A DNA stretch of 64,000 nt from Thermoanaerobaculia bacterium (GTDB taxonomy: Bacteria > Acidobacteriota > Thermoanaerobaculia > Multivoradales > JAGPDF01). Location of the stretch: NCBI GenBank assembly GCA_048500095.1, contig JASNYQ010000001.1:246136-310135 (forward strand). The letters are read 5' to 3'. The first letter of the stretch is position 1; the number at the start of each line of letters is the position of its first letter. The translations under genes and the position numbers were made by a program. This document shows positions 12,789-57,642 of this stretch, in pieces. The notes beneath the pieces were generated by a model, which saw only the letters and a program-made list of their open reading frames with translations, had not been told where the DNA came from and made no database searches.

Positions 12789-12804
12789 GACGACCGATTA
12801 TAGC
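12789..12804 (-). promoter_or_regulatory. Putative leaderless promoter -10 (GGCTATAAT-CGGTCGTC-GTG) for pcnB
   Basis: Minus strand reads GGCTATAATCGGTCGTCGTG. No SD between the box and the start codon. Confidence 0.4.
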
Positions 12805-13913
12805 CCCTCGGACGCCAAACCCAGGTCTTCGTAGATCGCCGCGCAGAGGCGGCGGAATCGAAGTCGGTGCGCCTCCTCGCCGGGGGTGCCGTTCACCGCC
12901 AGCGCCACGACGAGCCGGTGCTCTGGGTCGCAGAACGCGGTGGTCGAACGGTAGCCGCTGTGGCCGAAGGTGCGCGGCGAAGCGTGCGGCCCGTAGCCGT
13001 AGGGGGCGCCGGGGTCCCGGTACCACCCGGAGTTCAGGATCACGCCCAGACCCCAGTCGAGCCGGGCGCGGAAGGTGTGGTCGAGGAGGCCCACCCGATG
13101 CCGGGCGATCATCGCCTCGACGGTCTGGGGCGCGAGGATCCGCGCCCCGTCGAGCTCGCCGCCCCGCCGCAGCATCTCGTAGAAGCGCGCGAGCTCCCGC
13201 AGCGGTCCCCAGCCGTTGCCTCCGGGGGAGGGGTTCGTCACCTGCCGCCGCTGGTGCCAGGGGTGGAGCACCGCGGGCGAGGCCTCGGTGTTCCAGACCG
13301 GGACGAGGCGGGCGGCGACGGCGTCGTACTCCTCTTCCGGCATCCCGATCCAGCAGCCGTGCATCCCGAGCGGCGCGAAGAGATCCCGGCGGACGACGTC
13401 GGAGAAGTCGCGTCCCTCGAGGCGACGAACCAGCTCTCCCAGCACGAACCAGCTGGAGGCGAGGTGGTAGCCCGCCTTCCTCCCGGGCGTCCAGCCGGGC
13501 TCGAGCTTCCGGGCCGCGATGCGGGCGAAGATCTCTCCCCGGGAGGCTGCTGGCCAGCCGACGTCGAGCATCCGCAGGCCGCCGGTGTGGGTGAGGAGGT
13601 GGCGCACCGTGACGATCTCTTTCCCACCGGCCGCGAACTCCGGCAGATGCTGGGCCACCGGGTCGTCGAGCCGGAGCAGCCCCCGCTCCCAGAGCCGGAC
13701 GACGAGCACCGCCGTGACCGGCTTCGTCGCCGAGAGCCAGAGCATGGGGTCGTCGCGCCGGAGCGGGCGGCCGGGAGCGGCCTCGCCCAGCGCGAGGTCG
13801 ACGACCGGCAGACCGTCGCGGAGGACCGCGAGCTGCCCCCCGAGGTGCAGCCCGTCGCGCCGTCCCTCCTCGAGCAGCGCGAGGGTGCGCTCCATCGCCG
13901 GCGTCTGCGTCAT
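12798..13913 (-). CDS. Serine hydrolase, beta-lactamase/esterase family (class C-like)
   Basis: SxxK motif (LWLSATKPVTAVLV), HTGGL, later YGYG...GHSGY. ATG at 13913 is 7 nt downstream of GGCTAGACT. Confidence 0.8.
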   Translation of the reverse strand: MTQTPAMERTLALLEEGRRDGLHLGGQLAVLRDGLPVVDLALGEAAPGRPLRRDDPMLWLSATKPVTAVLVVRLWERGLLRLDDPVAQHLPEFAAGGKEIVTVRHLLTHTGGLRMLDVGWPAASRGEIFARIAARKLEPGWTPGRKAGYHLASSWFVLGELVRRLEGRDFSDVVRRDLFAPLGMHGCWIGMPEEEYDAVAARLVPVWNTEASPAVLHPWHQRRQVTNPSPGGNGWGPLRELARFYEMLRRGGELDGARILAPQTVEAMIARHRVGLLDHTFRARLDWGLGVILNSGWYRDPGAPYGYGPHASPRTFGHSGYRSTTAFCDPEHRLVVALAVNGTPGEEAHRLRFRRLCAAIYEDLGLASEGL

Positions 13914-13929
13914 CGGCCGGAGTCTAGCC
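13914..13929 (-). promoter_or_regulatory. GGCTAGACTCCGGCCG element immediately upstream of the ATG (putative leaderless -10)
   Basis: The identical 16-mer recurs at 52745-52760 (+) upstream of another start codon. Confidence 0.45.
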
Positions 13930-13966
13930 CGCTCCCCTCTCGCGGTCGCGCTATTCTCGAACCTGC

Positions 13967-14642
13967 CATGTGCGGCCGCTACACCCTCTCCGCCCCCGGC
14001 GACGTCGTCGCCGAGAGCTTCGGCCTGCCGGAGGTGCCGGTGCTCGCGCCCCGCTTCAACATCGCGCCGTCGCAGCAGGTTCCGGTCGTGCGGGTGGCGC
14101 CCGGCGGGCCGGGGCGCGAGCTCGCCCTGGTGCGTTGGGGACTCGTCCCCTCGTGGGCGCGCGAGGCGGCGATCGGCAACCGGCTGATCAACGCCCGGGC
14201 CGAGACGGTGGCCGAGAAGCCCGCCTTCCGCGACTCCTTCCGGCGCCGCCGCTGCCTGGTGGTCGCCGACGGCTTCTACGAGTGGCGCCCCGAGGGGCGG
14301 CGCAAGCAGCCCTGGCACTTCCGGCGGTCCGACGGCGCGCCGTTCGGGCTCGCCGGGCTCTGGGCTCGCTGGCCCGACCCCGCCGGCGGCGACCTCGAGT
14401 CCTGCGCCATCGTCACCACGGACGCCAACGACGCGGTCCGCCCGGTCCACGCCCGGATGCCGGTGCTCCTGGACCGCGCCGGCGCCGAGCTCTGGCTCGC
14501 CGACGGCGCCGACCCCGGCCGGATCGCCAGCCTCCTCGCTCCCGCTCCCCCCGGAGTCCTCGTCGGGTATCCCGTCTCGCCGGCGGTCAACGACCCGCGG
14601 CACGACACTTCCGACTGCATCCTCCCGCTCGCCGGCCGCTAG
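13967..14642 (+). CDS. yedK: SOS-response-associated peptidase (SRAP / YedK / HMCES family abasic-site sensor)
   Basis: N-terminal MCGRY with catalytic Cys2. ...RFNIAPSQ...LVRWGLVPSWA...CLVVADGFYEW... Divergent from the hydrolase gene, 53 nt apart. Confidence 0.85.
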
Positions 14643-14673
14643 CCGGGCACCTCCGCTCCGGAAACACGAAAAA

Positions 14674-14699
14674 GGGGCGGGCCACCAGGGCCCGCCCCC
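14674..14699. terminator. Bidirectional rho-independent terminator between convergent genes
   Basis: aaaaGGGGCGGGCC-acca-GGGCCCGCCCC. A-run on plus and T-run on minus, so it can serve both the OMP gene (minus) and yedK (plus). Confidence 0.55.
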
Positions 14700-14724
14700 G
14701 TGTCCGCTCGCGCGGTCGCCGGTT

Positions 14725-16401
14725 CTAGAAGCTGTACCGCAGCCCGAAGGTCGCGAGCAGCGGGTTGGGGTCGACCTCGATCGGCTCGAAGGTGCGGAGC
14801 AGGTCCGGCTCGTAGTGGATGTAGCGCAGACCGGCGTGGAACCCCCACGGATGCATGACGCCGAAGGGAATCTCCAGGCCGAGCTGGGCCCCGAGGCCGA
14901 ACTCGTCGGTGGGCCGGCGGCTCGGCGTGCTGCCGGGCACCGTGAACTCCGACTCGTCCATCGTCGTCCAGGCGAGGAACGGCCCGAAGTAGAGGTTCAG
15001 GCGGTCCCGGCGGAAGAAGTGGAAGTTCGGCCCGACCGAGAGCGTGAGCGCCGTGATCGTGTCGTCCGAAGAGGCCAGCTGGTTGTCGAGACCGTAGCGA
15101 TAGCCGGTGTCGATCTTGCCCCAGTTGATGGCGCCCTCGAACCCGAAGAGCTCGTTGATGTGGTACTCCGTCGCGAGACCGAGCCCCCAGCCGTTCTCGA
15201 ACCGGAAGTGCTCGCGCTCCGAGGCGCCGTTGGCGCGGCGCTGCTGCGCGAAGTGCCAGTCGCTCTCCGGATCCCAGTGCGAGAGGAAGCCGCGCACCGT
15301 CCAGAGCGGATGGACGCGGACCTGCACGCTGTCGGTGGCCGCGGCCCCGACCGCGTTCTTCGCCGTGCCCTCGAAGTCGTAGATGCCCATGCGCGGCATG
15401 ACGACCTCGCCCGTCTCCTCGGTGAACCGGGCATCGAGCTTCGGTCCCTTGGCGGTGACCACCAGCGGGTCGACGATCCCGCACTCGCCCTCGCGGTCCC
15501 AGTAGCCCTTCGCCTCGTAGCGGGCGGTGTCGCCCCGCCGGATGTAGTCGGGACCGACGGTGACGTCGATGGCCGGCGCCGGCGGCTCGATGCGAGCCAG
15601 CTGAGCGGTCGCGGTACAGGGGTTCCCCTCGATCGTCTCCATCCGGTGGCTCTCACCGGCGAAGGCGAGGTTGCCGCACGCCTTCGGGATCACGAAGTCG
15701 TAGCGGCGCACCCGCCGCTCGACCCGTGGGGCGGGCGCCGCGACCACGAACTCGTAGTCGGCGCAGTAGCGCTTGACCCACGGGCCCTGCCACTCCGAGG
15801 CGCCGGCCGGCACCACGACCTGCTCGCCGTCCGGTCCCTTCATCGTGACCGTCGCCCCGGCCGAGCTCCCGGCCGAGCTCGCGCGGACCGTCTTCGCCTC
15901 CGGATCCCCGGTCACCTCGAGGGCGCAGACCGCGTCCGGGTTCTCCGGCGCCTCCTTCACCTCGACCGCCACCACGAAGGCGGGGTAGGCGCGCTTGCCG
16001 GCGTAGCAGGCGGGGGTGATCAGCTTCGCGGGCCCTCGCCGGTTGGGCCGGTAGACCATCCAGTTGAGCGCCTCGCCCCGCTCGAGCGTGCGCTCCTCGA
16101 CCTGGCCGGCGGCCACCGCCTCGGCCAGCGCGCCCGCGATCTCGCCGAGGCCGTTCGCCTCCAGGATGCCGCGGATCTCGTCGCCCTGCGCGACGAACAG
16201 CGCCTGCAGCCCGGCCACGTCCTGGACCGGCACCTTGAGCGCGAACGGCCGCTGCCCCAGGTTGTGAATCTGGTTCTTCGGCTTGTACTCGGCACAGACC
16301 GGCGCGTCTGCGGCAAAGCCGGCCACCGCCGTCGCGAGCGCCAGCACGCAGACGCATGCCAGGAACGCTCCGAACCTCCCCTTCCCGCGCACTGAACCCA
16401 T
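14725..16401 (-). CDS. Outer-membrane beta-barrel protein (OmpA-like/porin-like C-terminus ending in Phe)
   Basis: Signal peptide FLACVCVLALATAVAGFAA. C-terminal alternating amphipathic strands ending ...LLATFGLRYSF. RBS GGAGGAGAG upstream. Confidence 0.65.
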   Translation of the reverse strand: MGSVRGKGRFGAFLACVCVLALATAVAGFAADAPVCAEYKPKNQIHNLGQRPFALKVPVQDVAGLQALFVAQGDEIRGILEANGLGEIAGALAEAVAAGQVEERTLERGEALNWMVYRPNRRGPAKLITPACYAGKRAYPAFVVAVEVKEAPENPDAVCALEVTGDPEAKTVRASSAGSSAGATVTMKGPDGEQVVVPAGASEWQGPWVKRYCADYEFVVAAPAPRVERRVRRYDFVIPKACGNLAFAGESHRMETIEGNPCTATAQLARIEPPAPAIDVTVGPDYIRRGDTARYEAKGYWDREGECGIVDPLVVTAKGPKLDARFTEETGEVVMPRMGIYDFEGTAKNAVGAAATDSVQVRVHPLWTVRGFLSHWDPESDWHFAQQRRANGASEREHFRFENGWGLGLATEYHINELFGFEGAINWGKIDTGYRYGLDNQLASSDDTITALTLSVGPNFHFFRRDRLNLYFGPFLAWTTMDESEFTVPGSTPSRRPTDEFGLGAQLGLEIPFGVMHPWGFHAGLRYIHYEPDLLRTFEPIEVDPNPLLATFGLRYSF

Positions 16402-16480
16402 CTCTCCTCCCCTGCAGTCCTCGTCACCGCCGGGCGACTGGGATCCCGGCTTCTGGACCGCGCTGATCCGAGGAGAAATT

Positions 16481-17836
16481 CTACTTCATCCCGAGGGCCG
16501 TCGCGGGGGCCCCGACGCCGGTTCCGGAGTCGCTCGCGCCGGCGGTCAGGGCCCGGGCCGCGCCGACTCCCGCCACGTGGCCGCTCGCCCAGGCCCACTG
16601 GAAATTGAAGCCGCCGAGGCGCCCGTCGACGTCGCAGATCTCCCCGCAGAGATGGAGGCCGGCGGCGCGGCGCGAGGCCATCGTGCGCAGGTCGATCTCC
16701 CCGAGCGGCACGCCGCCGGCCGTGACCTCGGCGGCCGCGAACCCCCGATCCCCCACGATCGGCAGCGTCAGACCACTCAGGCAGCGCACGAGGGCGCGGC
16801 GGTCCTCGCGCCGCAGCCGGTGCCCGGGAGTCCCCGGCTCCACCCCGGCGAGCTGGCAGATCGCCTCGGCCAGGCGGGGCGGCAGGCTCTCGGCGAGCAG
16901 GGACCGGACCGGCCGCGGGCCGAGCGCGGCCAGCGCCCCCTCCCACTCCTCCGCACGGCGGCCCGGCTGGAAGGAGACGGCGAGGTGGGCTCCCGGATCC
17001 TCCCGGCGGACGGCGAGCAGGTGCCGGCTGACGTCGAGCACCGCCGGCCCGGAGATCCCGAAGTGGGTGCAGAGCATCGGCCCGGCGACCTCGGCGAGGC
17101 GCCGGCCGGAGGCCGTCCGGACCGCCAAGGCGACCGGCACCGAGAGGCCGGAGAGCGACCGGAACGGGTGATCCGCGGCGAGGACGAGGGGCACCAGCGC
17201 CGGAAAGGTCGCAGTGACCCGGTGGCCGAGGGCGGCGGCGAGGGGGTAGCCGCTCCCGTCCGAGCCGCTCTTCGGCAGGCTCCGGCCGCCGGTCGCGAGG
17301 ACCACCCGGGCCGCGGCGAGCGCCCCCCACCGCCCGGACACCACGAGGCCCGCGCCGCCGGGAGCCAGCGCCGTCACCCGGCGGGCGCTCCGGAGCTCCA
17401 CCCCTCGCCGCGCGGCCTCGCCGAGCAGGGCGTCGAGGACGGTGCGCGCCCGGCCGCTCGCCGGGAAGAGCTTTCCCCCCTCCTCGCGCCGCACCGCGAC
17501 GCCGAGGCCGGCGAAGAAGGCGAGCGCGGCCTCGACGTCGAACTGCCGGAGCACCTTGTCGACTGCGGGGGGCGAGGCGCCGTGGAAGTCCCGGCCGGAG
17601 ACCGTCTCGTTCGTCAGATTGCAGCGGCCGCCGCCGGAGACGAGGATCTTGGCGCCGGGCCGGGCCGCCCCGTCGAGCGCCACCACCCGGGCGCCCGGCG
17701 CCGTGCGGGCGGCCCAGATCGCCGCCGCGAGGCCGGCCGCCCCGGCCCCCACCACGGCCACGTCGCAGCGCTCCACGGCGCGCTCCGGCCGCTCCGCGGC
17801 GCGCTCAGCCGCCGCGGGCGATGCGGGCGAGGGCAT
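16481..17836 (-). CDS. FAD-dependent oxidoreductase, HI0933/BaiN-like flavoprotein family
   Basis: CDVAVVGAGAAGLAAA dinucleotide fold, ...ILVSGGGRCNLTN... The exact start is uncertain (overlaps the Crp stop by ~30 nt). Confidence 0.75.
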   Translation of the reverse strand: MPSPASPAAAERAAERPERAVERCDVAVVGAGAAGLAAAIWAARTAPGARVVALDGAARPGAKILVSGGGRCNLTNETVSGRDFHGASPPAVDKVLRQFDVEAALAFFAGLGVAVRREEGGKLFPASGRARTVLDALLGEAARRGVELRSARRVTALAPGGAGLVVSGRWGALAAARVVLATGGRSLPKSGSDGSGYPLAAALGHRVTATFPALVPLVLAADHPFRSLSGLSVPVALAVRTASGRRLAEVAGPMLCTHFGISGPAVLDVSRHLLAVRREDPGAHLAVSFQPGRRAEEWEGALAALGPRPVRSLLAESLPPRLAEAICQLAGVEPGTPGHRLRREDRRALVRCLSGLTLPIVGDRGFAAAEVTAGGVPLGEIDLRTMASRRAAGLHLCGEICDVDGRLGGFNFQWAWASGHVAGVGAARALTAGASDSGTGVGAPATALGMK

Positions 17837-18518
17837 CCGCGTCCGCGATGAGGAAGCCGCCGCCCCGCTCGGTGCGCACGATCCCCCGCTTCGCCCAGCG
17901 GCCGAGGATGCGGATCGCGGTCTCCGCCGTCGTGCCGACGAAGTCGGCGAGCTCCTGCCGGGTGAGGCGCAACGGGATGAGGCGGCCGCCGGGCACGCTC
18001 CGGCCGACCTCGTCGGAGAGCTTCCCGAGGAGGCGGGCGAGGCGGGCGTCGACGTGCCCGCCTGCGAGGTCGGCGAGCCGGCTCGTGAGCTGGATCAGGC
18101 GCATCGTCATGCCGGCGAGCAGGCCCCGCGCGATCGACGGATGCTCCTCGAGCAGCGCGAGAAAGGCGTCGCGCGGCAGGACGAGACAGGTCGCCGCTTC
18201 GGTCGCCACCGCGGTGGCGGGGAAGGGATGCCCCTCGTAGGCGGCGATCGCCCCGAGCGGATCGCCCGGGCCGAAGAGCTCGAGGATCACCTCCTTGCCG
18301 GCCGGGGTGATCTTGACCACCTTGACGCGACCGCTCACCACGGTGAAGAAGTGGCGCGAGGGGTCCCCCTCGCGGAAGACCGCCTTCCCCCGCCGGTAGG
18401 AGCGGAGCTCGGCGAGCTGCGCGATCCGCGCCCGGTCCCCCTCCGCGAGGCGGCGGAAGAGGACGCTCGCCGCGAGCCACGCCTCGACCTCCAAACGGCG
18501 GGCATCGGCGTCGGCCAT
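17805..18518 (-). CDS. Crp/Fnr family transcriptional regulator
   Basis: cNMP-binding fold (FREGDPSRHFFTVVSGRVKVV...GKEVILELFGPGDPLG) and C-terminal HTH (RQELADFVGTTAETAIRILGRW). Confidence 0.8.
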   Translation of the reverse strand: MADADARRLEVEAWLAASVLFRRLAEGDRARIAQLAELRSYRRGKAVFREGDPSRHFFTVVSGRVKVVKITPAGKEVILELFGPGDPLGAIAAYEGHPFPATAVATEAATCLVLPRDAFLALLEEHPSIARGLLAGMTMRLIQLTSRLADLAGGHVDARLARLLGKLSDEVGRSVPGGRLIPLRLTRQELADFVGTTAETAIRILGRWAKRGIVRTERGGGFLIADADALARIARGG

Positions 18519-18553
18519 GGCCGCGATGCTAGCGCAGCCGGGGCCCCGCCCCG

Positions 18554-19792
18554 TCAGGCGGCGCGGGCGGCGTCGAACGCCGCGAGACGGCGCTGGAAGC
18601 GCCGGCCGAAGACCTTCGCCATCGCCCGCAGCTTGAGCCGCTGGAAGGGATAGCTGCGGTCGGAGAACGCCCGGCACTCCTCCGGGAGCATGACGAGGCT
18701 CACGTGGATGTTCGGCGCCACGCCCACCGGCAGGCCGGCCTCCATGCAGGTCTCGTACAGGCGGCGGAAGACCGGGATCATCGACTCGGTGGTCGGCGGC
18801 TCGGCCGCCGCCATGTCGGTGCCGACCAGCGGGCGGAAGACGCAGACGGTCGGCACCGCGCCCACCGAGGTGATCCACTCGATCGCGCGGATCGACGACT
18901 CCGGCGGCTCGAGGCCGGCCACGATCTCGCCGTTGGTCACCCAGGGCTCGTCCTTCGGCCCCTTGTGCTTGAGGGTGGCGCAGTAGCGGATCGCCTCGAG
19001 GTAGTGGTCGAGGCCGTACTCGGCGTCCTTGCCGGGGCAGATCTCGCGGAAGATCTCGCGGTCGAAGATCTCGAAGCAGAAGGAGGCGCGGTTGACCCCG
19101 AGCTCGCGCAGCTCGTCGTACCGCTTGAGATCGCGGTGCGGCGGCGTCTGCACGCCGACCAGCAGGCCGGTCTCCTTCTTGATCCGCCGGATGTACGGCA
19201 ACAGGATGTCGAGGTAGGTGTCCCCCTCGTAGTGGCCGGTGTTGAAGTCGACGTAGGTGATCCCGGACTCGTCGCGTGCCGCGCGCACGACCTCCATCAC
19301 CTCGTCGACCGACTTCTCGTCGGCGTCGTCGACGCCGAGGTTGAGGCCGACCGAGCAGAACTTGCAGTTCACCTTCTGCGGCTTGGCGGTCCAGTACTCG
19401 CACACCTTCGCCGGATAGACGCCGAGGTAGGTCCCCTGCAGCGTGCCGATCCGCGTCATCGGCTTGCCGGTCGTGGTCGGGCGGTCGTACCAGCCGGGCC
19501 GCGGCGAGAGCTCCACCTTCGTCACCTCGGAGCCGTCGTGGTAGAGGTGATACTCGCCGCCGCTCTTGTGGAGCGTGTAGGGGGACCGGGCGGCGAACGG
19601 CTCGCTCACCGGGGCGTTGGTCCACAGCCCGCCGGGGAGGATGAGCTCCAGGCCGCTCCCGAGCCCGGCCCGGGTGCGCAGGATCTTGCGGCCCCCGTCC
19701 TCCTCGATGAAGCAGGAGTCGTCGAGCCGCAGCCCCTTGCAGTAGAGGTCGAGCTTCACCAGGGCGGGGGTGGTGCGCAGCGCTTCGAGCAT
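18554..19792 (-). CDS. Radical-SAM-like Fe-S enzyme with a non-canonical Cx12Cx2C cluster motif
   Basis: VYPAKVCEYWTAKPQKVNCKFCSVGLN core. Overall layout (TIM-barrel-like blocks LGVNRASFCFEI, NGEIVAGLEPPESS) resembles radical SAM proteins. ATG at 19792 preceded by GAGGAGGAGAG. Confidence 0.55.
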   Translation of the reverse strand: MLEALRTTPALVKLDLYCKGLRLDDSCFIEEDGGRKILRTRAGLGSGLELILPGGLWTNAPVSEPFAARSPYTLHKSGGEYHLYHDGSEVTKVELSPRPGWYDRPTTTGKPMTRIGTLQGTYLGVYPAKVCEYWTAKPQKVNCKFCSVGLNLGVDDADEKSVDEVMEVVRAARDESGITYVDFNTGHYEGDTYLDILLPYIRRIKKETGLLVGVQTPPHRDLKRYDELRELGVNRASFCFEIFDREIFREICPGKDAEYGLDHYLEAIRYCATLKHKGPKDEPWVTNGEIVAGLEPPESSIRAIEWITSVGAVPTVCVFRPLVGTDMAAAEPPTTESMIPVFRRLYETCMEAGLPVGVAPNIHVSLVMLPEECRAFSDRSYPFQRLKLRAMAKVFGRRFQRRLAAFDAARAA

Positions 19793-20277: not shown

Positions 20278-20336
20278 CCCGGGGGATCGTAGGAGTTCAG
20301 GACCCGATTGTCGAGATTGACAGGGGGGAGACCCGC

Positions 20337-20753: not shown

Positions 20754-20769
20754 CGGGAGTAGTCTAGCC
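20754..20769 (-). promoter_or_regulatory. GGCTAGACTA element 7 nt upstream of the cytochrome c ATG
   Basis: Minus strand GGGAGCGGCTAGACTACTCCCG-ATG. The plus strand of the same site reads TAGTCTAGCC, facing the divergent CPA2 gene. Confidence 0.4.
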
Positions 20770-23938: not shown

Positions 23939-24064
23939 GGACCGCCGTCCGAGCCTGTCACAGGTCGCGCCATCGCGCCCCACCCCGCGGCGTCGTCTGG
24001 GGCTGGAAGCCACTCTCGACTAGACTCCGCGCCCGGGTTTCCCGCACGAATGGGGAGGAGATCG

Positions 24065-26620: not shown

Positions 26621-26624
<4 letters not shown>

Positions 26625-28030
26625 GACACTACCTCCTCGGCGGCGAGAATCCGGTTCACGATCTCCGACTGGCCCGGCAGCACGCCCCCGTAGTGGCGGA
26701 CGTGCTCGATCAAGGGCGGCTTGAAGACCCCCGCCTGGCTCAAGGCGAGGCGCAGCTCGTCCTCGAGCTGGCCGTTCGAGGCCTCGACCACGACGATCCG
26801 CTCCACCCGCTTGAGCAGCGGCAGGAGGTGCTGGATGGGGAACGGCCAGAGCGTGACCGGCCGGAAGAGGCCGACCTTGACCCCCTTCTGCCGCAGCTGC
26901 TGCACCGCCCCCTTGGCCATCTGCGCCGGGGTGGTGGTGGCGACGATCAGGGTCTCGGCGTCGGCGCAGTGGAAGAGGTCGGCCCGCTGCTCGTTGGCCG
27001 TCATCTCCGCGTACTTGCCGAGCAGGTACTTGTTGTGGTCCTCGAGCTCCTGCTCGGAGAGGTAGATCGAGCAGATCAGGTTGCGCCGGTGGTCGTGGTC
27101 GCCCCACACCGCCCACTGCGGGCGACCCGGACGGACCATCTTGCGCGGCAGGGTGACGCGCCCGGTCATCTGGCCGAGGTAGCCGTCGCCGAGGATGACC
27201 ACCGGGTTCCGGTACTTGAACGAGAGCTGGAAGGCCAGCATCGTCAGGTCCAGCATCTCCTGCGGCGTGGAGGGCGCGAGCACGATGGCGTGGGTGTTGC
27301 CGTGCCCGAGGCCGCGGCAGGCGAGCTTGATGTCCGACTGCTCGGGGGCGATGTTCCCCAGGCCGGGGCCGCCGCGCATGATGTCGAGGAAGACCCCCGG
27401 CACCTCGGAGCCGATCATGTACGAGATCCCCTCCAGCATCAGGCTGAAGCCCGGCGAGGAGGTGAAGGTGAGGCAGGGCAGACCGGCGCCGCCGCAGCCG
27501 TACATGATGTTGACCGTGGCGACCTCGGAGACCGCCTGCAGGAAGACGCCGTCGAGCTTGGGCAGCAGCTTCGCCATCAGCTCCGCGCCCTCGGTGGAGG
27601 GGGTGATCGGATAGCCGTAGACGTGGCGGCAGCCGGCGAGCATGGCGCCGATCGCGGCGGCGTAGTTGCCCTTGATGACCAGCGGCGCGGTGGCCGGCAG
27701 GTCGACCAGCTCGTCCGGGATCGGCTCGGCGTGCGGCGCGGCGGTCTCCCGCGCGCCGAAGAGATGTGCCGGGTCCTGCAGCTCGTAGTCCTCACCCGGC
27801 TGGACCTGCGGCTGCAGCCCGAACGGCTCGGGGCAGGCGGTGATGCAGAGCCCGCAGCCGTTGCACGCCTCGAGGTCGAGGACGATCGGGATCAGACCGG
27901 TCTGGGGGTTGATTTCCGTTCCCAGAGAGATACAGTGCTTCGAGCAGACATCGATGCAGCGCCCGCAGCCCTTGCAGTACTCCGGGAAGACGAACGGCTT
28001 GGGCCGTTCGCTGACTTGGGGTTGACTCAT
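26621..28030 (-). CDS. korA: 2-oxoacid:ferredoxin oxidoreductase alpha subunit with an N-terminal 2x[4Fe-4S] ferredoxin (delta) domain
   Basis: CKGCGRCIDVC...CNGCGLCITACP, then the alpha core (YGYPITPSTE, GGAGLPCLTFTSSPGFSLM). RBS AAGGAGG. Confidence 0.85.
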
Positions 28031-28104: not shown

Positions 28105-28193
28105 GAGAGGATAGCAGAAAAGCGATAAAAGGATTTTTAATTCTTTTTTTCTGAATTCATGATACTCTCCTCCTCCGGAAAGGAAGGTCGATC
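28105..28193. promoter_or_regulatory. Unusually AT-rich divergent control region between korA and the Rrf2 gene, containing a TGAATTCA palindrome
   Basis: atagcagaaaagcgataaaaggatttttaattctttttttctgaattcatgatactc, set in a >70% GC genome. GATACT -10-like box and SD GGAAAGGAAGG lie before the Rrf2 ATG. Confidence 0.45.
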
Positions 28194-28673
28194 ATGCTCA
28201 CTCGCAGCTCCGAATACGCGCTCCGCGCGTTGACCTATCTCTCCCTGAAGGAGGACCGCACCAGCTGGGTCCTCGCCCGGCACATCGCCACGGAGCTCGG
28301 GATCCCTTCGCCGTTCCTCGCGAAGATCCTGCAGACGCTGGCCGGGGCCTCGATCCTCGAGAGCCAGCGCGGCCGGCGCGGCGGCTTCCGGCTCAACCGG
28401 AACCCGGAGCGGCTCTCGCTGCTCGAGATCATCGAGCCGTTCGACCGGCTGGAGAGCGAGCGCCTCTGCGTGCTGGGGCAGAAGGTCTGCTCCGACGAGA
28501 CCGCCTGCCCGCTCCACCACACCTGGAAGCACTCGCTGAACTCGTTCCTGCACCGGCTGCGCACGACCACGCTCGCCGATCTGCGCGACCACCCGATGGC
28601 GATGGGCTTTCCGAGCCGGCTCGAGCCGCCGAGCTCGCCCAGCGGTCCTTCCAACCTCGCCTCGATGGTCTGA
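28194..28673 (+). CDS. Rrf2 family transcriptional regulator (second paralog, three-Cys type)
   Basis: MLTRSSEYALRALTYLS...winged HTH...CVLGQKVCSDETACP. Confidence 0.8.
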   Translation: MLTRSSEYALRALTYLSLKEDRTSWVLARHIATELGIPSPFLAKILQTLAGASILESQRGRRGGFRLNRNPERLSLLEIIEPFDRLESERLCVLGQKVCSDETACPLHHTWKHSLNSFLHRLRTTTLADLRDHPMAMGFPSRLEPPSSPSGPSNLASMV

Positions 28674-31695: not shown

Positions 31696-31873
31696 CGGGA
31701 GAACCTCCGGGGGTGGGTTCACGGCCGGCGAGCGGACCGATCCGGTGGCAGCGGCGCGACGGACGGGACAGGCCTGGCTCGCCGGAGGGCGAGCCGCTCG
31801 CGGGGCCGGACCCGAGGTCGCATGCTATCATCGCGCCCCGCCGCGGCGGCCTGCACCGCCCCCGATCCCCCGC

Positions 31874-45657: not shown

Positions 45658-45717
45658 GGCTCCTCCTCGCTTACGATACGCTGACTCGGGGCGAAGGTTC
45701 GCCGGAGAGGAGAGCCC

Positions 45718-47587: not shown

Positions 47588-47625
47588 GGCCGGAGCGTAG
47601 CCGATCGGCGGCGGCGGGCCAAGCC

Positions 47626-50410: not shown

Positions 50411-51576
50411 GCACCTCCCCGAACCGCCGCGACGACCTTCTGCGCCGCGTCGGCCATCGTCTCGGCGACGATGAAGTGGAACTCGCTCTCGCGCAGGATC
50501 GCGCGGCCCTGCTCGACGTTGGTGCCCTCGAGGCGGACGACGACCGGCATCGCGACGCCGCCGAGGCTGCGCAGCGCCTCGACCACGCCGTTGGCGATCC
50601 GGTCGGTGCGGGCGATGCCGCCGAAGATGTTGATCAGCACCGCCTTGACGCTCGCGTCGGAGACCAGGATGCGGAAGGCGTTCGCCACCGCCTCCTGCGA
50701 AGCCGAGCCGCCGACGTCGAGGAAGTTGGCCGGCTCGGAGCCGTAGAGCTTGATGATGTCCATGGTGGCCATCGCCAGGCCCGCGCCGTTGACCATGCAG
50801 CCGATCTCGCCGTCGAGCTTGATGTAGTTGAGGTCGAATTTCGACGCCTCGACCTCCAGCGGGTTCTCCTCGGCGACGTCGCGCATCGCGACCACGTCGC
50901 GGTGGCGGAAGAGGGCGTTGTCGTCGAAGTTCATCTTCGCGTCGAGGGCGAGCACGTCGCCCTGCGCGGTGATCATGAGCGGGTTGATCTCGGCCAGCGA
51001 GGCGTCGGTCTCGAGGTAGGCCTTGACCAGCGCCGCCACCAGCTTGCCGGCCTTGTTGGCGGTGTCGCCCTCGAGGCCCAGCCGCTTGGCGACGAGGCGC
51101 CCCTGGAACGGCAGCAGGCCGAGGTGCGGGTCGACGTGGACGCGGGTGATGGCGTCGGGGTCGCGCTCGGCGACCACCTCGATCTCCATCCCGCCGGCGG
51201 CCGAGGCGATGATCACCGGCTTGGCCGCGGCGCGGTCGAGGGTGACCGCGAGGTAGAGCTCGCGGGCGATCTCGAGCGCCTCTTCGATCAGCACCTTCTG
51301 GACCTTCTGCCCCTCCGGGCCCGTCTGGTGGGTGACGAGCTGCATGCCGAGGATCTGGCCGGCCAGCGCCTCGGCCTCCGCCGGGTCCTTGGCGAGCTTC
51401 ACGCCCCCGCCCTTGCCGCGCCCGCCGGCGTGGATCTGGGCCTTGACGACGACGCGCCCGCCCAGCTCCTCGGCGATGGCGCGCGCCTCGCCCGCGTCGG
51501 CGGTCACCCGCCCGCGCGGCGTGGCGACACCGTAGCGGCGCAGGATCTCCTTCGCCTGGTACTCGTGAATCTTCAA
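50407..51576 (-). CDS. sucC: Succinyl-CoA synthetase beta subunit
   Basis: TTG start ([17 protein letters not shown]) after AAGGAGGG. ATP-grasp and CoA-ligase domains ([15 protein letters not shown]). TTAGACT -10-like element ~80 nt upstream. Confidence 0.9.
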
Positions 51577-51697
51577 GATTCCCTCCTTCCGGGATCCGCA
51601 GGTGGGCCGGGGCCGAAAGCCGCGCCCCCGGCGCGGCGCCCCACGAACGAGGAGTCTAACGGACCGCCGCGGGCCGCGAAAAGGGCCCCAGGGCAGA

Positions 51698-52048
51698 TCA
51701 GCTCCCCGGAGGTCCAGAGGGGAGAAGAGAGGCGAGCATCGGCCGGAGCCTCGGGATCTCGACCGAGCACACGTCCCAGACGAGGTCGAAGTCGACATCG
51801 AGGTAGTCGTGCACGATCTTGTGGCGCATCCCTACGATCTCCGCCCAGGGGACCTCCGGGTGACCTGCCCGGTACCCGGAGGAGACCCGTCGCGCCGCCT
51901 CCCCGAGAGTCTGGACCAGGTGGGTCAGGGCGAGGCGGAGGTCCTCGTCGGCGTCGAAATCCTCCCGCTCGAGGCGCACGGCCCGCGCGAGGATCCGGTC
52001 GCAGAGATCGAGCATCTGCGCGACGTAGACGAGGTCGTCATGCCGCAT
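51698..52048 (-). CDS. hepT: HepT-like RNase toxin (DUF86; type VII TA system)
   Basis: Rx4HxY motif (GMRHKIVHDY). Confidence 0.75.
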   Translation of the reverse strand: MRHDDLVYVAQMLDLCDRILARAVRLEREDFDADEDLRLALTHLVQTLGEAARRVSSGYRAGHPEVPWAEIVGMRHKIVHDYLDVDFDLVWDVCSVEIPRLRPMLASLLPSGPPGS

Positions 52049-52337
52049 ACTGGATCACCGCCTCGGAGAGGACCCGGTCGCGCAGGTGCCGGTTGAGGTA
52101 CTTGCGCGAGACCAGGTCGACCCGCCTCCCCCCGAAGAGCGCGGAGAGCTCGCGCTCCAGCGCGAAGACCCGGAACCCCAGGACCGTGCCCGGCTCGAAC
52201 TCGACGAGCAGGTCCACATCGCTCTCCGGCCCGAAGTCGTCGCGCACGGCGGAGCCGAACAGCGCGAGACTGCGAATCCCCCACCGCACACACAGGTCGC
52301 GGAGCGCATCTCGGTCGATTGGAATCTGCACGGACAT
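52038..52337 (-). CDS. mntA: MntA-like minimal nucleotidyltransferase antitoxin
   Basis: LFGSAVRDDFGPESDVDLLVEF (GS...DxD NTase motif). 11-nt overlap with hepT. Confidence 0.8.
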   Translation of the reverse strand: MSVQIPIDRDALRDLCVRWGIRSLALFGSAVRDDFGPESDVDLLVEFEPGTVLGFRVFALERELSALFGGRRVDLVSRKYLNRHLRDRVLSEAVIQYAA

Positions 52338-52653
52338 CGCGGCTCCCGCCGGCGAAACCGGCTCGCCGGCATGCTACCGCGCCTCACGCTCCCCGCGCCG
52401 GTCCGGGCGGGGGCGAACCGGCCACCTTCGCTCGCCTCGTCCATTTCCCGGATGGGTTGCAGCCGCCCTCGCCGTCGCAACGAGCTCCGTCAGGGCACCC
52501 GGAGCGGACGGTCCCGGTGCCCACCGGCCGCCGCCCCCGTGAGGGGAAGGCCCACCTCGGCCCTCTCCCCGGATCCGATGCGGCTACCCCGCGGAGATCA
52601 CCCAAGCCGCCCCGGCCGGTGGCTCGGCACGAAGGAACCGATAGCGAGAGCGT

Positions 52654-52688
52654 GCGCGGCGACTGTGACCTCGCAAGGCAGAACCCGA
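52654..52688. repeat. Imperfect direct repeat copy 1 (GCGCGGCGACTGTGACCTCGCAAGGCAGAACCCGA)
   Basis: 29/35 identical to 53496-53530. Together the two copies flank the 52760-53463 two-gene cassette. Confidence 0.5.
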
Positions 52689-52744
52689 GACCAGCTCGGC
52701 CTCCTTTGCGGGACCACCATGGCCTCGACTCGCCCAACGGCGCT

Positions 52745-52759
52745 GGCTAGACTCCGGCC
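52745..52759 (+). promoter_or_regulatory. GGCTAGACTCCGGCC element immediately before the GTG at 52760
   Basis: Identical 16-mer to the one upstream of the beta-lactamase-family gene (13914-13929, minus strand). Confidence 0.45.
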
Positions 52760-53248
52760 GTGAACGGCCCCCGCGCCCTCGTCTTCCGGGCCCTCGCCAC
52801 GGCGGGCGTGCGCTATCTCGTCGTCGGCGGCGTGGCCGTCGTGCTGCACGGCCACCTGCGGGCCACGGTCGACCTCGACCTCGTCCTCGACCTCGCGCCG
52901 GAGAACACCGCGCGGGCGCTCGACGCCCTCGTCGCGGCCGGCTTCCGGCCGGTGGCGCCGGTGCCCGTCGGCGAGTTCGCCGACCCGGCGGCGCGCGAGC
53001 GCTGGGCGCGCGAGAGGCAGATGGTCGTCTTCTCGCTCTGGACCGACGCCGACCCCACCTTCAAGGTCGACCTGTTCGTCGAGGAGCCGTTCGACTTCGC
53101 GGTCGCCTGGCAGCGCGCCGCGGCCGTCGAGCTCGCCGGCGTCGAGGTGCGCGTCGTCTCCCTCTCCGACCTGCTCGCGATGAAGCGGCGCGCCGGCCGG
53201 CCGCAGGACCTCGCCGACGTGGCCGCGCTCGGGGAGATCGCGCGGTGA
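52760..53248 (+). CDS. Minimal nucleotidyltransferase-fold protein (Pol-beta superfamily)
   Basis: GTG start. YLVVGGVAVVLHGHLRATVDLDLVLD (hG[GS]...DxD). Confidence 0.5.
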   Translation: MNGPRALVFRALATAGVRYLVVGGVAVVLHGHLRATVDLDLVLDLAPENTARALDALVAAGFRPVAPVPVGEFADPAARERWARERQMVVFSLWTDADPTFKVDLFVEEPFDFAVAWQRAAAVELAGVEVRVVSLSDLLAMKRRAGRPQDLADVAALGEIAR

Positions 53249-53463
53249 AGCCCGACCTCGCCCGGCACGTCGCGGCCCTGCCGCCGCGGGCTCTGACCGC
53301 CGACGAGAACCGCGCCCTCGAGCGCGCGATCGGCCTTTCGCTCTCGCCGCAGGAGCGGCTCGACTGGCTGGAACGGACCCTCGCCGAGCTCGCGGCGCTC
53401 CGCGGCCTCGCGGCCGCGAGCAACAGCGTCGGGCGCGAGACGAGCCCCCACACCCGCCCGTAG
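53245..53463 (+). CDS. Small helical hypothetical protein translationally coupled to the NTase
   Basis: GTGA overlap with the upstream stop. 72 aa. No family. Confidence 0.3.
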   Translation: MKPDLARHVAALPPRALTADENRALERAIGLSLSPQERLDWLERTLAELAALRGLAAASNSVGRETSPHTRP

Positions 53464-53495
53464 CGACCGGGATCGTCCTCAGACCGCGTGAGACA

Positions 53496-53530
53496 GCGCG
53501 GTCACTGTGATCTGGCGAGGCGGAACCCGA
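53496..53530. repeat. Imperfect direct repeat copy 2 (GCGCGGTCACTGTGATCTGGCGAGGCGGAACCCGA), overlapping the 3' end of the FGE gene
   Basis: Encodes ...GFRLARSQ* of the FGE protein on the minus strand. Copy 1 would encode GFCLARSQ in a non-genic context. Confidence 0.5.
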
Positions 53531-54821
53531 TGTAGTTGTCCCGGGAGGTCGGGGTGCCGTCGTAGCGATACGCCGAGCGGCAGAAGCGCGCGTAGCGGTA
53601 CCAGTAGCCGCCCCGCAGGACGCGGTACGGGCCGCTGGCCGGTCCCGTCGGGTCCACCGCCGGTCCCGCCGGGTAGTCATCTTCGTACCAGTCCTGCACC
53701 CACTCGAGCAGGTTCCCGTGCATGTCGTACAGCCCGAACGGGTTCGCCCCCTTCGACCCCACCGGGTGGCTGTTCGCGTTGTAATTGCCGCACCACCACA
53801 TGTAGAGGTCGTGCGCTCCGCACGCCACGCAGTCGTCGTTACACTCCAGCACGTCCCCGTGCGAGAAGCGCGTCTGCGTCCCTCCCCGCGCCGCCCGCTC
53901 CCACTCCGCCTCCGTCGGCAACCGGAAGAGGGTCGTTCCGAGGTGGGTGTTCAAGAGATCGAGGAAGCCGCCCGGGCCCGCAACGTCGTCCCACGAAACG
54001 CAGTAGGCCGGGTAGTCCGGCCCAATGCCCCAGGGGACGCCACTGGTGCAGGTGTACGACCACGGCCCCATCAGGGCCTCCCACTGCGCCTGCGTCACCT
54101 CCGTCTTCCCCATCCAGTACGGCTGCGTGAGCATCACGTCGTGCAGGGTCTCGTTCGAGTTTCTCCCCCTCTCGCTCTCCGGCGAGCCCATCTGGAAGGT
54201 CCCGGCGGGGATGAGGACCAGGGTGAGCGGCACATCGCCCGGGAGGAGGATGGTCATCTCCTCGGCCGGCCCGGTGGACCAGCGACACCCGGAGCCCTGC
54301 TCGAAACCGTCGGCGAAGTAGCCCGGTGGGCCTGCATAGACGCCGTCGAGCCAGATCGAGGTCGAGTTGGAGGTGACTGCGGGCCCGATGCTGCACGACG
54401 CCATTCCCGCCGGGATCGCGTACTCCAGGCGGTGCCGGTTCCAGCTCTTCCGGCCGCCCAGCGCCTCGGCGAGCGGCACCAAGGGTGTCGGCGCTCCCGA
54501 ACAGTCGGGTACCGCGTAGCAGGCGACCGCCGAGGCTTCGGACCAGTCGCCCGGATTCGGGAAGCTCTTCGACGAGTACTCCACGAAGAACGGCTCGCCG
54601 GCCTGCACCGGCACGCACGGCGACTGGCTCAGGGAGCTTCCGGCCGCCTCCCCCGAACCCGACCGCGAGCACCCGTCGCGGTCGAAGGGACTCCAGCTGA
54701 GGGCCTGCGTCCACCCTGACGTGTCCACGTCGAACTCCGGGTTCACGATCCGGTTCTGGGCCTCCGCCCCGGCCAGCGGCAGCGAGGCGACGACGAGGCC
54801 GATCCTCAGCGCTTTGCGCAT
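53502..54821 (-). CDS. Formylglycine-generating-enzyme (FGE/SUMF1) family protein with a secreted Cys-rich N-terminal domain
   Basis: Signal peptide. C-terminal FGE-sulfatase domain blocks (RLPTEAEWERAARGG, HGNLLEWVQDWY, RVLRGGYW, YIGFRLAR). Confidence 0.8.
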   Translation of the reverse strand: MRKALRIGLVVASLPLAGAEAQNRIVNPEFDVDTSGWTQALSWSPFDRDGCSRSGSGEAAGSSLSQSPCVPVQAGEPFFVEYSSKSFPNPGDWSEASAVACYAVPDCSGAPTPLVPLAEALGGRKSWNRHRLEYAIPAGMASCSIGPAVTSNSTSIWLDGVYAGPPGYFADGFEQGSGCRWSTGPAEEMTILLPGDVPLTLVLIPAGTFQMGSPESERGRNSNETLHDVMLTQPYWMGKTEVTQAQWEALMGPWSYTCTSGVPWGIGPDYPAYCVSWDDVAGPGGFLDLLNTHLGTTLFRLPTEAEWERAARGGTQTRFSHGDVLECNDDCVACGAHDLYMWWCGNYNANSHPVGSKGANPFGLYDMHGNLLEWVQDWYEDDYPAGPAVDPTGPASGPYRVLRGGYWYRYARFCRSAYRYDGTPTSRDNYIGFRLARSQ

Positions 54822-55099
54822 CGTTCCCCTCCCGAGACCCCCTCGGAGGCGTCAGTCCGACAATTCGGATTGTACGACTCCTATCCACTCCGAGCGAGAC
54901 CACCCGGTCCCCGGTGCATCAGGAACCGCGGCGGTCTCTCCATGGCTTCCGTTCGAGGCCGGGAGCGGCAGCGCCCCGCGCAGCGCGGAACCCGGCGCCG
55001 CACCCCGCTGAGACCGGCAGCGCTCGCCGGATCGCCCTCGGGAGGTGCGGGCCCGGGACCCGCGAGGCCGGCGGCAGCCCCGGGAGAGACGCCGACCCC

Positions 55100-57523
55100 T
55101 TACGGCAGCCGCAGGACGAGGAGGGTGAGGTCGTCCTCGCGGGGGGCGTCGCCGATGTGGGCGGCGAGGTCGGCGAGGAGGCCGTCGCGGGCGGCGGGGG
55201 CGGAGCGGCCGGCCTGGCGCGCGAGGCTCTGCTCGAAACGCTCGAAGCCGTAGAGGTCGTCGCTGCCGTCGGGGCGGGCCTCGACCACGCCGTCGCTGAA
55301 GAGCACGACGAGGTCGCCGCGCTCGAGGCGAGCCAGGCGCGAACGGACCTCGATCTCGGCGCGCACGCCGAGCGGGTAGGAGATCGACTCGAACGCCTCC
55401 ACCCGGCCGTCGCCGCCCACGCGGTACGGGAAGAGATGGCCGGCGCTGGCGAACTGGAGCTCGCGGCGGACGGGGTCGAGCAACGCGTAACAGAGGGTCG
55501 CGAGCAGCCGCTTGCGGGCGCTCTGGAAGACCATCCGGTTCAGCGTGAGGAAGACTGCCTCGACCCGCGGGTCGAAGGTGACCTGGACGGCGAGCGCCGA
55601 CTTCGCCATCGACATCACGAGGCCGCTCGAGACGCCGTGGCCGGCGACGTCCCCCACCGCCACCGCGAGCCGCCCGTCCTCGAGCGCCAGCGCGTCGTAG
55701 AAGTCGCCGCCCACCTCGGTCGCCGGGCGGTAGGCGTGGGCGATCTCCACGCCGCAGAGGGCCGGCGGCAGCTCGGGGAGGATCGAGGACTGGATGTTCC
55801 GGGCCGTCTCGAGCTCGACCCGCTGCCGCTCGCGCTCCGCGATCCGCCGCACGTGTGGCGGCACGTCGTCCCAGCGGTAGACGTACTCCTCGTTCGAGAG
55901 CAGGTGGCGCAGGCCCAGCAGCAGGGGGAGGCCGCAGGTCAGCAGCGCGAGCGCCCCCTGCAGCTCCAGGGCCGGGTGCCCGGAGCGCACCAGCGGCAGA
56001 GCGGCGAGCGCGACGCGCGCCGTGTAGCTCGCCACCAGCGTCGAGAGCAGGTCGGTGCGCAGGAAGACCGCCACCAGCACGCCCGACCAGAGGAGCCAGA
56101 AAGGCACCGACCAGGCGAACGGCAGCAGCGCCACCGGCGGGAAGAAGATCACGGCCGTGACGGCGACGGTCACCGCCGCCGCGCCGAGCCGGCCCAGGCG
56201 AGGGGTGAGCGTCGAGAGCAGGAAGAGCCGCCCGAAGAGCTCGAAGAAGAGGGTGAACGGGATCGCGAAGAGGATCAGAGCCACCCCGGCCCAGCGCGCG
56301 TCGTCCCACCAGGGGCCGACCTGGAACGCCCCCGGGGCGGTGATGCCGTGGCGCTGCAGCGGGAACTGGAGCAGCAGCGTGGCGGCCGCGAGGAGCAGGC
56401 CGATGGCGAGGCCGCGCAGGCCCGCGCGCGGCACCGTGGCGTTCTCCCACCGGCGCTGCCAGAGAGCGTCGAAGGCGGCGAGCTTCGCCCCCCAGCGCTC
56501 GCGGCAGAACGACTCCCCCACCGCCCAGCTCACCGCGGTGGTGAGCGCCAGCGGCAGGAAGAAGACGAGGACCAGCTGCACCCCCCAGAACCAGGTCACC
56601 TGCTCGCGGCTCAGCGCCCCGAACATGAAGCCCTGGGTCGACGGCCGCGCCGTCGCGAGCACCAGCAGCAGGCTCGCCGCCAGCGATGCGACGAAGATCT
56701 GGAGCGCCCGTCCCACCCCCACCTCGCCGGCGTGGTAGCGGCGCACGAAGATGGCGCCGGCGAGCGGCACGATGAGGAAGATCGCGAAGACGTTCAGGTT
56801 GCCGAGCAGGGTCGGGAGGCGCATCTCCTCTTCCCGCACGGCGCGCTGTGGGTCCTCGATCCAGGGGGAGAAGCCGGCGAGCCGGTCGCCCGCGAACGCC
56901 ACCTCGACGCCGTAGCGGACCCCCTCGCCGAGCAGCCGCTCGCGCAGGGGGAGGCGCACCGCGGTGTCGGTGCGGGAGGCGAGCTGCTCGACCCGCACCT
57001 CCGGCTCGTCGAAGAGCGCGAGGTCGAAGCCCTGTGCACCGAGGAACTCGGCGGCCCGGCGCCGGGCCTCGTCGCGCTCGAGGCCGGTCCCCGGGTCCTC
57101 GCGCGCCAGCCGGAGCCGCAGCTCGTAGACCTCGCCGTCCCCTCCCACCCGCGCGCGGTACGACCACTGGTCCGGCGCCCGGCCGGGGGCGTAGACGACC
57201 ACCTCCCAGGAGAGGACCTGGCGGCCGAGCCAGCCGCGCCCCCCGCGCGCCGCCCCGCTCGCCTCGCCGGCGAGGGCGAGGCGCCGCTCCATCATCGGGT
57301 CGTCGTCGAGGCGGCTCACCACGTACGGGTCGGAAGGGAGGGTGCCGAGATCGCGAAGCCGCTCGAGGGCGATCTCGGTGGCCTCCTCCCGGCTCACCTC
57401 CCAGCGCTCGGGCAGGAACGGGTAGGCGCGCGGGAACGCCCACGGCAGCAGGAGCGCACCGGCCGCGGCGGCGGTCAGCCAGAAGAGGGTCCAGGCCGCA
57501 CGGCGGCGCTCGGGCAGATTCAT
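55100..57523 (-). CDS. Large polytopic-membrane PP2C-family (SpoIIE-like) serine phosphatase
   Basis: Periplasmic N-domain, ~8-10 TM, C-terminal PP2C (ARNIQSSILP...ATEVGGDFYD...VGDVAGHGVSSGLVMS...VLFSDGV). Confidence 0.75.
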   Translation of the reverse strand: MNLPERRRAAWTLFWLTAAAAGALLLPWAFPRAYPFLPERWEVSREEATEIALERLRDLGTLPSDPYVVSRLDDDPMMERRLALAGEASGAARGGRGWLGRQVLSWEVVVYAPGRAPDQWSYRARVGGDGEVYELRLRLAREDPGTGLERDEARRRAAEFLGAQGFDLALFDEPEVRVEQLASRTDTAVRLPLRERLLGEGVRYGVEVAFAGDRLAGFSPWIEDPQRAVREEEMRLPTLLGNLNVFAIFLIVPLAGAIFVRRYHAGEVGVGRALQIFVASLAASLLLVLATARPSTQGFMFGALSREQVTWFWGVQLVLVFFLPLALTTAVSWAVGESFCRERWGAKLAAFDALWQRRWENATVPRAGLRGLAIGLLLAAATLLLQFPLQRHGITAPGAFQVGPWWDDARWAGVALILFAIPFTLFFELFGRLFLLSTLTPRLGRLGAAAVTVAVTAVIFFPPVALLPFAWSVPFWLLWSGVLVAVFLRTDLLSTLVASYTARVALAALPLVRSGHPALELQGALALLTCGLPLLLGLRHLLSNEEYVYRWDDVPPHVRRIAERERQRVELETARNIQSSILPELPPALCGVEIAHAYRPATEVGGDFYDALALEDGRLAVAVGDVAGHGVSSGLVMSMAKSALAVQVTFDPRVEAVFLTLNRMVFQSARKRLLATLCYALLDPVRRELQFASAGHLFPYRVGGDGRVEAFESISYPLGVRAEIEVRSRLARLERGDLVVLFSDGVVEARPDGSDDLYGFERFEQSLARQAGRSAPAARDGLLADLAAHIGDAPREDDLTLLVLRLP

Positions 57524-57626
57524 GTCTCTTCCTACGCAGCGCCCGGTCCCGGGGTTCTCGGGAGCGCTCACGAGGGGCTCGGGAAACGGGCGGACCGAAA
57601 GCTAGCACGCCGCCCGCCGGGGGCGT

Positions 57627-57642
57627 GCTACATTCGCCGGCC
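57627..57642 (+). promoter_or_regulatory. GCTACATT-CGCCGGCC element directly upstream of the cdd ATG (leaderless arrangement)
   Basis: No SD. -10-like hexamer 8 nt before the ATG. Confidence 0.4.

Follow-up and report, generated by a model that had tools for sequence, protein, structure and literature searches.

Putative extended -10 promoters directly before start codons in Thermoanaerobaculia, pointing to leaderless mRNAs

The closest described counterparts of the element treated here are -10 boxes standing directly before coding regions. In 207 bacterial genomes, Zheng et al. (2011, PMC3160421) located TANNNT ahead of gene starts, its first T lying about 12 bp away, and took the hexamer for the -10 box that leaderless genes carry; all three Acidobacteria genomes in their survey had it, at a mean of 13.3% of genes (range 9.7–19.4%). 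In Mycobacterium tuberculosis, mapped transcription starts are preceded by TANNNT with no -35, and C-G-N or TGN frequently extends the hexamer upstream (Cortes et al., 2013, PMC3898074). In Deinococcus, mutagenesis and RNA-seq have validated a -10 motif 6–7 bp before open reading frames (ORFs), in which positions 1, 2 and 6 are essential, and leaderless mRNAs opening with either AUG or GUG undergo translation (PMC12340547, PMC4007540). In our searches of the literature on leaderless mRNAs in Acidobacteriota, the 2011 survey alone proved relevant, and transcription-start mapping for the phylum was not found. The present analysis concerns a 64,000-nt stretch of contig JASNYQ010000001.1 (hereafter the window) from an uncultured, diderm acidobacterium of the class Thermoanaerobaculia with 74% GC, in which a TANNNT hexamer ends 6–10 nt before the start codons of a group of genes lacking a Shine-Dalgarno (SD) sequence. 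As judged from sequence tests of specificity, SD content, start codons and conservation, these hexamers are very probably sigma-70-type extended -10 promoters positioned for leaderless mRNAs, as an earlier note on this DNA had proposed.

The GC content across the window is 72–77%; because six-frame ORF lists are useless at such GC, we called genes by a codon log-odds score, trained on long ORFs in which third codon positions are GC-rich. The start assigned to each ORF was the one maximising the coding score and the upstream sequence was ignored, so that the calls are blind to the motif. This procedure gave 60 genes, to which the SRAP (YedK) gene was added on the basis of Pfam, making 61, and the JGI gene calls, made independently on the same DNA, agree with this model. 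A JGI metagenome contig of 113 kb (3300009868, Ga0130016_10000738) encodes a protein identical at every residue to SRAP (13968–14642), and several Logan assemblies carry the identical protein in the gene order of the window; the samples SRR254359xx and SRR25580096 also carry this contig. Judged by coordinates, the JGI contig would stop near window position 51525, so that the window must derive from another, longer record of the same organism or a nearly identical one. A PcnB scan with one genome per species matched solely Acidobacteriota metagenome-assembled genomes, nearly all labelled Thermoanaerobaculia, the top match having 90% identity and the following ones 60–69%. As a lineage set we used 78 related Thermoanaerobaculia/Acidobacteriota loci, each of at least 4 kb and about 1.2 Mb in total, whose 1060 complete starts were called by the same blind, home-made codon-score caller. 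Scans of the window found no tRNA gene and no Rfam family, and a structured RNA or tRNA was thereby ruled out as an explanation of the element.

In the window, the position of the element is what stands out. The earlier note had held that GCTAnnnT recurs far above chance; as a raw count this did not survive, since the window has 19 copies of GCTANNNT where dinucleotide-preserving shuffles predict 20.8, and we therefore dropped over-representation of the 8-mer and relied on positional tests, which bore out the claim as regards placement. TANNNT has 58 copies on both strands, 31 of them within 3.3 kb of intergenic DNA, a density about 21 times that of coding DNA; the hexamers are thus concentrated in non-coding DNA upstream of genes, the location proper to a promoter element. 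At 10 of the 61 blind-called starts a copy ends 6–9 nt before the start, against 0.11 expected at the global rate and 1.1 at the intergenic rate (P ~4e-7). When pcnB and SRAP are included after start correction, the genes with this arrangement, here called leaderless-type, number 12 of 61 (~20%; Table 1). All eight sites listed in the earlier note were recovered at their positions and on their strands, and four more were added (ligA, crp, rrf2 and the C69 peptidase gene). An SD-like tetramer is found in none of the twelve, as had been remarked of the listed genes, and the window genes fall into 12 leaderless-type without SD, 34 SD-led and 15 with neither feature.

The same 6–9 nt peak was obtained in the related loci. 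Spacers of 6, 7, 8 and 9 nt occur in 44, 33, 39 and 21 lineage genes, respectively, where the background is about 4 genes per spacer length, which makes 137 of the 1060 genes (13%) leaderless-type; among lineage genes heading a transcription unit the share is 16%. These 137 genes represent 66 of the 380 protein families, so the peak is not a product of recounting a few syntenic genes. When all 64 patterns of the form XYNNNZ were tested 6–9 nt before starts, TANNNT was enriched 8.2-fold and every other pattern at most 2.2-fold; the next-ranked patterns (about 2-fold) are purine patterns reflecting SD sequences, and other A/T-rich patterns gave 1.7-fold (ATNNNA), 1.8-fold (AANNNA) and 0.35-fold (TTNNNT).

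Aligned on the hexamer, the 137 sites give the consensus G-n-T-A-g-A-A/C-T-C, followed by a C-rich spacer, with position weights favouring A at hexamer position 4 and A or C at position 5. A G stands two bases ahead of the hexamer at 88 of the 137 sites, and at 21 of the 31 intergenic TANNNT copies of the window. The motif GCTAnnnT of the earlier note is therefore right in its G; its middle C is common in the window and not conserved among relatives, and the true form is GnTAnnnT. The full TGn extension is present at ligA, cdd, the C69 peptidase gene and mqnD. The position weights of the 137 sites hold no information around -35, and in a canonical two-hexamer scan over 18 kb (11–29 kb) the rrf2 promoter, complete with both hexamers, was the sole match; in extended -10 promoters the -35 is dispensable. 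The commonest lineage hexamers are TAGAAT (21 sites), TAGACT (17), TACAAT (12) and TATAAT (11), and since TAGACT ranks second, GCTAGACT represents one of the lineage's favourite -10 boxes.

Start calling is hard in high-GC DNA, and a peak of this kind might come from chance or from annotation, either through miscalled starts or through the TAA and TAG stops that bound ORFs and could mimic TANNNT; in four window genes the TAG or TAA of the hexamer is indeed an in-frame upstream stop. We consider such an artefact exceedingly improbable, because the start calls were blind to the motif and the peak returns in a test that dispenses with gene calls: downstream of all 2685 TANNNT copies, ATG or GTG codons that begin a frame of 80 codons or more are concentrated at 6–9 nt. 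Moreover, the out-of-frame spacers of 7 and 8 nt are as frequent as those of 6 and 9 nt, and the share of hexamers starting with TAA or TAG is equal across all spacers; the lack of three-base periodicity together with this equal share excludes the in-frame stop-codon artefact. The -10-like information at hexamer positions 4 and 5, the starts fixed by Pfam boundaries and by Cys2 of SRAP (see below), and the window P of ~4e-7 or lower also speak against it.

Lineage genes of the leaderless type differ from the others around the start codon as well. SD-like tetramers occur in 10 of the 137 (7%) as compared with 48% of other lineage genes; the start codons are ATG in 86, GTG in 47 and TTG in 4, so that TTG is depleted (4/137 vs 100/923, P=0.002), and C occupies position -1 in 58% as compared with 37% of the others. 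A pyrimidine at -1 with a purine at +1 is the pair favoured at transcription starts. The element lies where an SD would be expected (-7 to -13), in genes without SD, and on this account it could be a non-SD ribosome-binding or unstructuring signal, that is, an A/U-rich translational enhancer on a longer mRNA. We regard this as very unlikely, because the enrichment is specific to T-A-n-n-n-T with nothing comparable for other A/T-rich patterns, a G is present at the extended -10 position, and the TTG depletion and the C(-1)/purine(+1) preference fit start-site selection by RNA polymerase. The same hexamers are found ahead of SD-led genes as well, at 25–100 nt, a distance that precludes a role as ribosome sites, and in Deinococcus a ribosome-binding site could not take the place of the corresponding motif (PMC12340547).

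Under the promoter interpretation, the housekeeping (sigma-70/SigA-type) RNA polymerase would read a -10 box within the promoter consensus G-n-T-A-(G)-A-(A/C)-T, an extended -10 with no recognisable -35, whose hexamer ends 6–10 nt before ATG or GTG in 11–12 of the 61 window genes and in about 13% of the lineage. Transcription would start at, or a few bases from, the purine of the start codon, beyond a spacer that is rich in C and has C at its -1 end, and the product would be an mRNA with neither 5' leader nor SD, on whose 5'-terminal AUG or GUG ribosomes would initiate directly. Boxes of the same type placed 25–100 nt upstream would drive SD-led genes.

Several points weigh against this interpretation. 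The transcription starts are inferred from sequence, and the start codons in related loci were predicted with the home-made caller. The lineage loci are syntenic around pcnB, and their genes are therefore not fully independent, which the family count mitigates. As for single sites, the arrangement before bla (the beta-lactamase-family gene) is kept in none of seven homologues; the C69 peptidase site is ambiguous, since the preceding gene ends 11 nt away and has its stop codon in the TAG of this hexamer, which may therefore be a coincidence; and the 10-nt spacer of SRAP implies a leader of a few bases, which is likely to be 0–4 nt long.

The window and its relatives agree with the 2011 survey (PMC3160421) in having TAnnnT with an uninformative middle in high-GC genomes, at the same position and with SD-led genes coexisting, and the share found here (13% in the lineage, 20% in the window) matches the 13.3% given there for Acidobacteria. 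Unlike that survey, our material comes from uncultured Thermoanaerobaculia, a class outside the 2011 set, and it resolves the extended -10 G and the preference for TAGAAT and TAGACT. The SigA promoters of M. tuberculosis resemble the present sites in TANNNT without -35, the frequent G at -2, a purine start and a 5' ATG or GTG; in that Gram-positive actinobacterium, however, the starts have been mapped and leaderless genes make up about a quarter of the total, whereas here the host is a diderm acidobacterium with deduced starts. Deinococcus-Thermus (de Groot et al., 2014, PMC4007540; PMC12340547) shares with the present lineage the -10 box beside the ORF, AUG and GUG starts and conservation among orthologues, but its leaderless share is higher (30–60%) and experimentally validated, and the spacing here is slightly broader (6–9 nt). 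The phenomenon is thus an ordinary one, textbook-level in several high-GC lineages and already predicted for the phylum, and what we report are new instances and not a new kind of element; because the pattern is already well described, its interest is limited, and no new mechanism is introduced and no open question resolved. Its usefulness lies in annotation, where about one in seven starts in Thermoanaerobaculia could be fixed from the adjacent -10 box, as for pcnB at 12788, and in making promoters readable from sequence; expression constructs for these organisms would need no ribosome-binding site for such genes. It also carries over to a further acidobacterial class a computational prediction that in 2011 concerned three cultured Acidobacteria.

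Table 1. Hexamers of the -10 type in the window, with the start codons that they precede; the upper twelve rows are the leaderless-type sites and the lower rows are boxes at a distance and divergent cores.
Gene or feature	Hexamer or core	Position (strand)	Nucleotides to start	Start	Remarks
ligA	TAGGCT, TGG before	1491–1496 (-)	6	ATG 1484	Pfam LigA domains
pcnB	TATAAT, GC before	12797–12802 (-)	8	GTG 12788	
bla (beta-lactamase-family)	TAGACT, GGC before	13921–13926 (-)	7 (CCGGCCG)	ATG 13913	
SRAP/yedK	TATTCT, CGC before	13952–13957 (+)	10	ATG 13968	
crp (Crp/Fnr regulator)	TAGCAT, CGC before	18526–18531 (-)	7	ATG 18518	
rrf2	TCGACA-17-TACGAT	20286–20314 (-); -10 at 20286–20291	8	ATG 20277	
cytochrome c	TAGACT	20761–20766 (-)	7	ATG 20753	
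85-aa ORF	TACGCT, GGC before	47594–47599 (-)	6 (CCGGCC)	ATG 47587	Conserved protein
Nucleotidyltransferase (NTase; AbiEii/DUF6036-like)	TAGACT, TGGC before	52748–52753 (+)	6 (CCGGCC)	GTG 52760	
cdd	TACATT, TGC before	57629–57634 (+)	8	ATG 57643	Full TGn
C69 peptidase	TAGCAT, TGG before	61704–61709 (-)	8	ATG 61695	
mqnD	TAGCCT, TGA before	63298–63303 (-)	9	ATG 63288	
Chalcone-isomerase-like gene	TAGACT in TAGACTA core	4281–4287 (+)	51	4338	SD-led; core on both strands
ECF sigma gene	TAGTCT in TAGACTA core	4281–4287 (-)	17	ATG 4264	Short leader, no SD
cytochrome c	TAGACT in TAGTCTA core	20760–20766 (-)	7	ATG 20753	Core on both strands
Na+/H+ exchanger gene	TAGTCT in TAGTCTA core	20760–20766 (+)	52	20818	SD-led
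Divergent core	TACGATA core	45672–45678			One TANNNT per strand, shifted by a base
Gene 24065	TAGACT	24021–24026 (+)	38	24065	SD-led; leadered promoter candidate
sucC	TAGACT	51653–51658 (-)	76	TTG 51576	SD-led; leadered promoter candidate
Thioredoxin-like gene	TATCAT, TGC before	31826–31831 (+)	42	31874	No clear SD

The starts themselves receive support that is independent of the hexamers. Pfam alignments open at, or a few residues from, the proposed N termini: residue 1 of SRAP corresponds to profile position 1, and the first aligned residue is 2 for Rrf2, 6 for MqnD and 6 for cytidine deaminase. The SRAP/YedK protein opens with Met-Cys-Gly-Arg (13968–13979), which fixes the start codon and shows the gene to be intact; the N-terminal cysteine of this family is its catalytic residue. 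The cytochrome c has a lipoprotein-type signal peptide at its N terminus, and inspection of the upstream sequence of ligA, pcnB, the nucleotidyltransferase gene and mqnD gave no further in-frame start. For pcnB, gene callers disagree on the start within 12780–12788 (loci L001–L006), the protein being 456 aa in the JGI calls and 453 aa in the Logan calls; because the -10 box and GTG are kept in 30 relatives, the longer form starting at 12788 is favoured.

This pcnB arrangement, TATAAT or TACAAT 6–9 nt before an in-frame start that is almost always GTG, was found in 30 of 77 relatives. Nearly all of the carriers belong to the closer loci (L008–L042), where nearly all pcnB genes have it; the distant relatives are without it, and several of them have TAGAAT about 30 nt upstream instead. 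It is conceivable, though unlikely, that leaderless GUG initiation of the pcnB type is an ancestral, selected trait of Thermoanaerobaculia. The ligA arrangement is kept in all three ligA-like genes from related loci and that of mqnD in the single one, and one of five homologues of the 85-aa protein (in locus L010) is leaderless-type. As SD-led controls, sdhA, sdhB and sdhC show the arrangement in 0 of 25, 0 of 25 and 2 of 27 genes, respectively. The arrangement is therefore gene-specific, maintained in evolution for some genes and labile for others, and Zheng et al. (PMC3160421) reported the same behaviour.

Some of the sites are closely interlocked with neighbouring genes. In two of them the stop codon of the preceding gene lies inside the next -10 hexamer (TA-TAA-T between bla and pcnB, TAG-CAT before the C69 peptidase gene), so that at 12797–12802 and 61704–61709 the promoter would overlap the end of a coding region. 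The divergent SRAP/YedK and bla genes have their leaderless-type promoters back to back within 54 bp, and the crp hexamer is an internal promoter inside a 35-nt gap.

As the earlier note had pointed out, the 16-mer GGCTAGACTCCGGCCG is identical before bla and the NTase gene, and it is this identity at two unrelated genes that could suggest a specific operator or an alternative-sigma promoter, GGCTAGACT followed by CCGGCC, defining a small regulon of bla, the NTase gene, the cytochrome c gene and the 85-aa ORF. Counts in the window lean in the same direction, with GGCTAGACT present 3 times against 0.18 expected and TANNNTCCGGCC 3 times against 0.31, and only 2 of the 137 lineage sites have a CCGGCC spacer, a rarity for which we rejected it as a lineage-wide feature. 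Such a regulon is nevertheless highly improbable, since TAGACT is merely the second commonest -10 hexamer of the lineage, the genes are functionally unrelated, and promoters of the ECF type are unlike TAnnnT. The exact 15-mer GGCTAGACTCCGGCC was furthermore found in at least 120 unrelated metagenome contigs (L087–L206), and 32 of the 112 usable copies (~29%) are followed within 0–3 nt by ATG or GTG and a long ORF; several more precede an SD and a start codon. Its flanks are unrelated wherever it is present, for which reason a repeat or mobile element was rejected. Occurrence in unrelated contexts argues for a promoter sequence reached convergently in high-GC bacteria and against a repeat or a lineage-specific operator, and it suggests convergent leaderless promoters across lineages. 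That GGCTAGACT or GGCTACGCT with CCGGCC before the start forms a distinct, co-regulated promoter class seems to us unlikely; such a class could have a GC-rich discriminator sensitive to growth rate or the stringent response, or a dedicated factor. Just before the leaderless-type nucleotidyltransferase gene there is a 422-bp stretch (52338–52759) without a convincing gene or Rfam match, and on its other side lies a toxin-antitoxin pair of the MNT/HepT type (51698–52337, minus strand).

SD-led genes heading a unit often have TANNNT 25–100 nt upstream (Table 1, lower rows). The distant copies that the earlier note had placed before SD-containing genes hold for the chalcone-isomerase-like gene, gene 24065 and sucC, whereas the thioredoxin-like gene has no evident SD; the TATCAT before the latter overlaps a minus-strand TAGCAT (31822–31827).

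It had also been proposed that a palindromic core in divergent regions could serve both strands. According to the summary in PMC10268837 of Warman et al. (2021), bidirectional promoters show -10 symmetry, with divergent starts 18 bp apart, and the TAnnnTA cores at 4281, 20760 and 45672, each with one TANNNT per strand shifted by a base, oppose -11A on either strand to -7T on the other in the way described there. In this respect the proposal agrees with a known configuration, and bidirectional use of the cores is possible. In 160 divergent regions of the lineage, paired TANNNT copies show strand-offset peaks at +1 and -4, for which base composition proved to account; the TAnnnTA arrangement is no more frequent than it predicts (A after the hexamer in 20% against 18% predicted by the A content), and enrichment of the palindrome was therefore rejected, a difference from the bidirectional promoters as summarised in that source. 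The other overlapping arrangement reaches 24% against 18% (P ~0.01).

Two further features of the intergenic DNA may be mentioned. An AT-rich island (…gataaaaggatttttaattctttttttctgaattcatgaTACTCT…) at 28110–28168 lies in the 163-bp divergent region between a minus-strand gene (26621–28030) and an Rrf2-family regulator starting at 28194 on the plus strand; the island closes with an extended -10 box (TGA-TACTCT) that stands 25 nt from the SD-led start, and a role as UP element or operator is possible. Between the convergent SRAP and outer-membrane beta-barrel genes there is a strong terminator-like hairpin (14673–14699, minus strand) with a stem of 11 pairs, all but one G-C, and a TTTTT tract after it.

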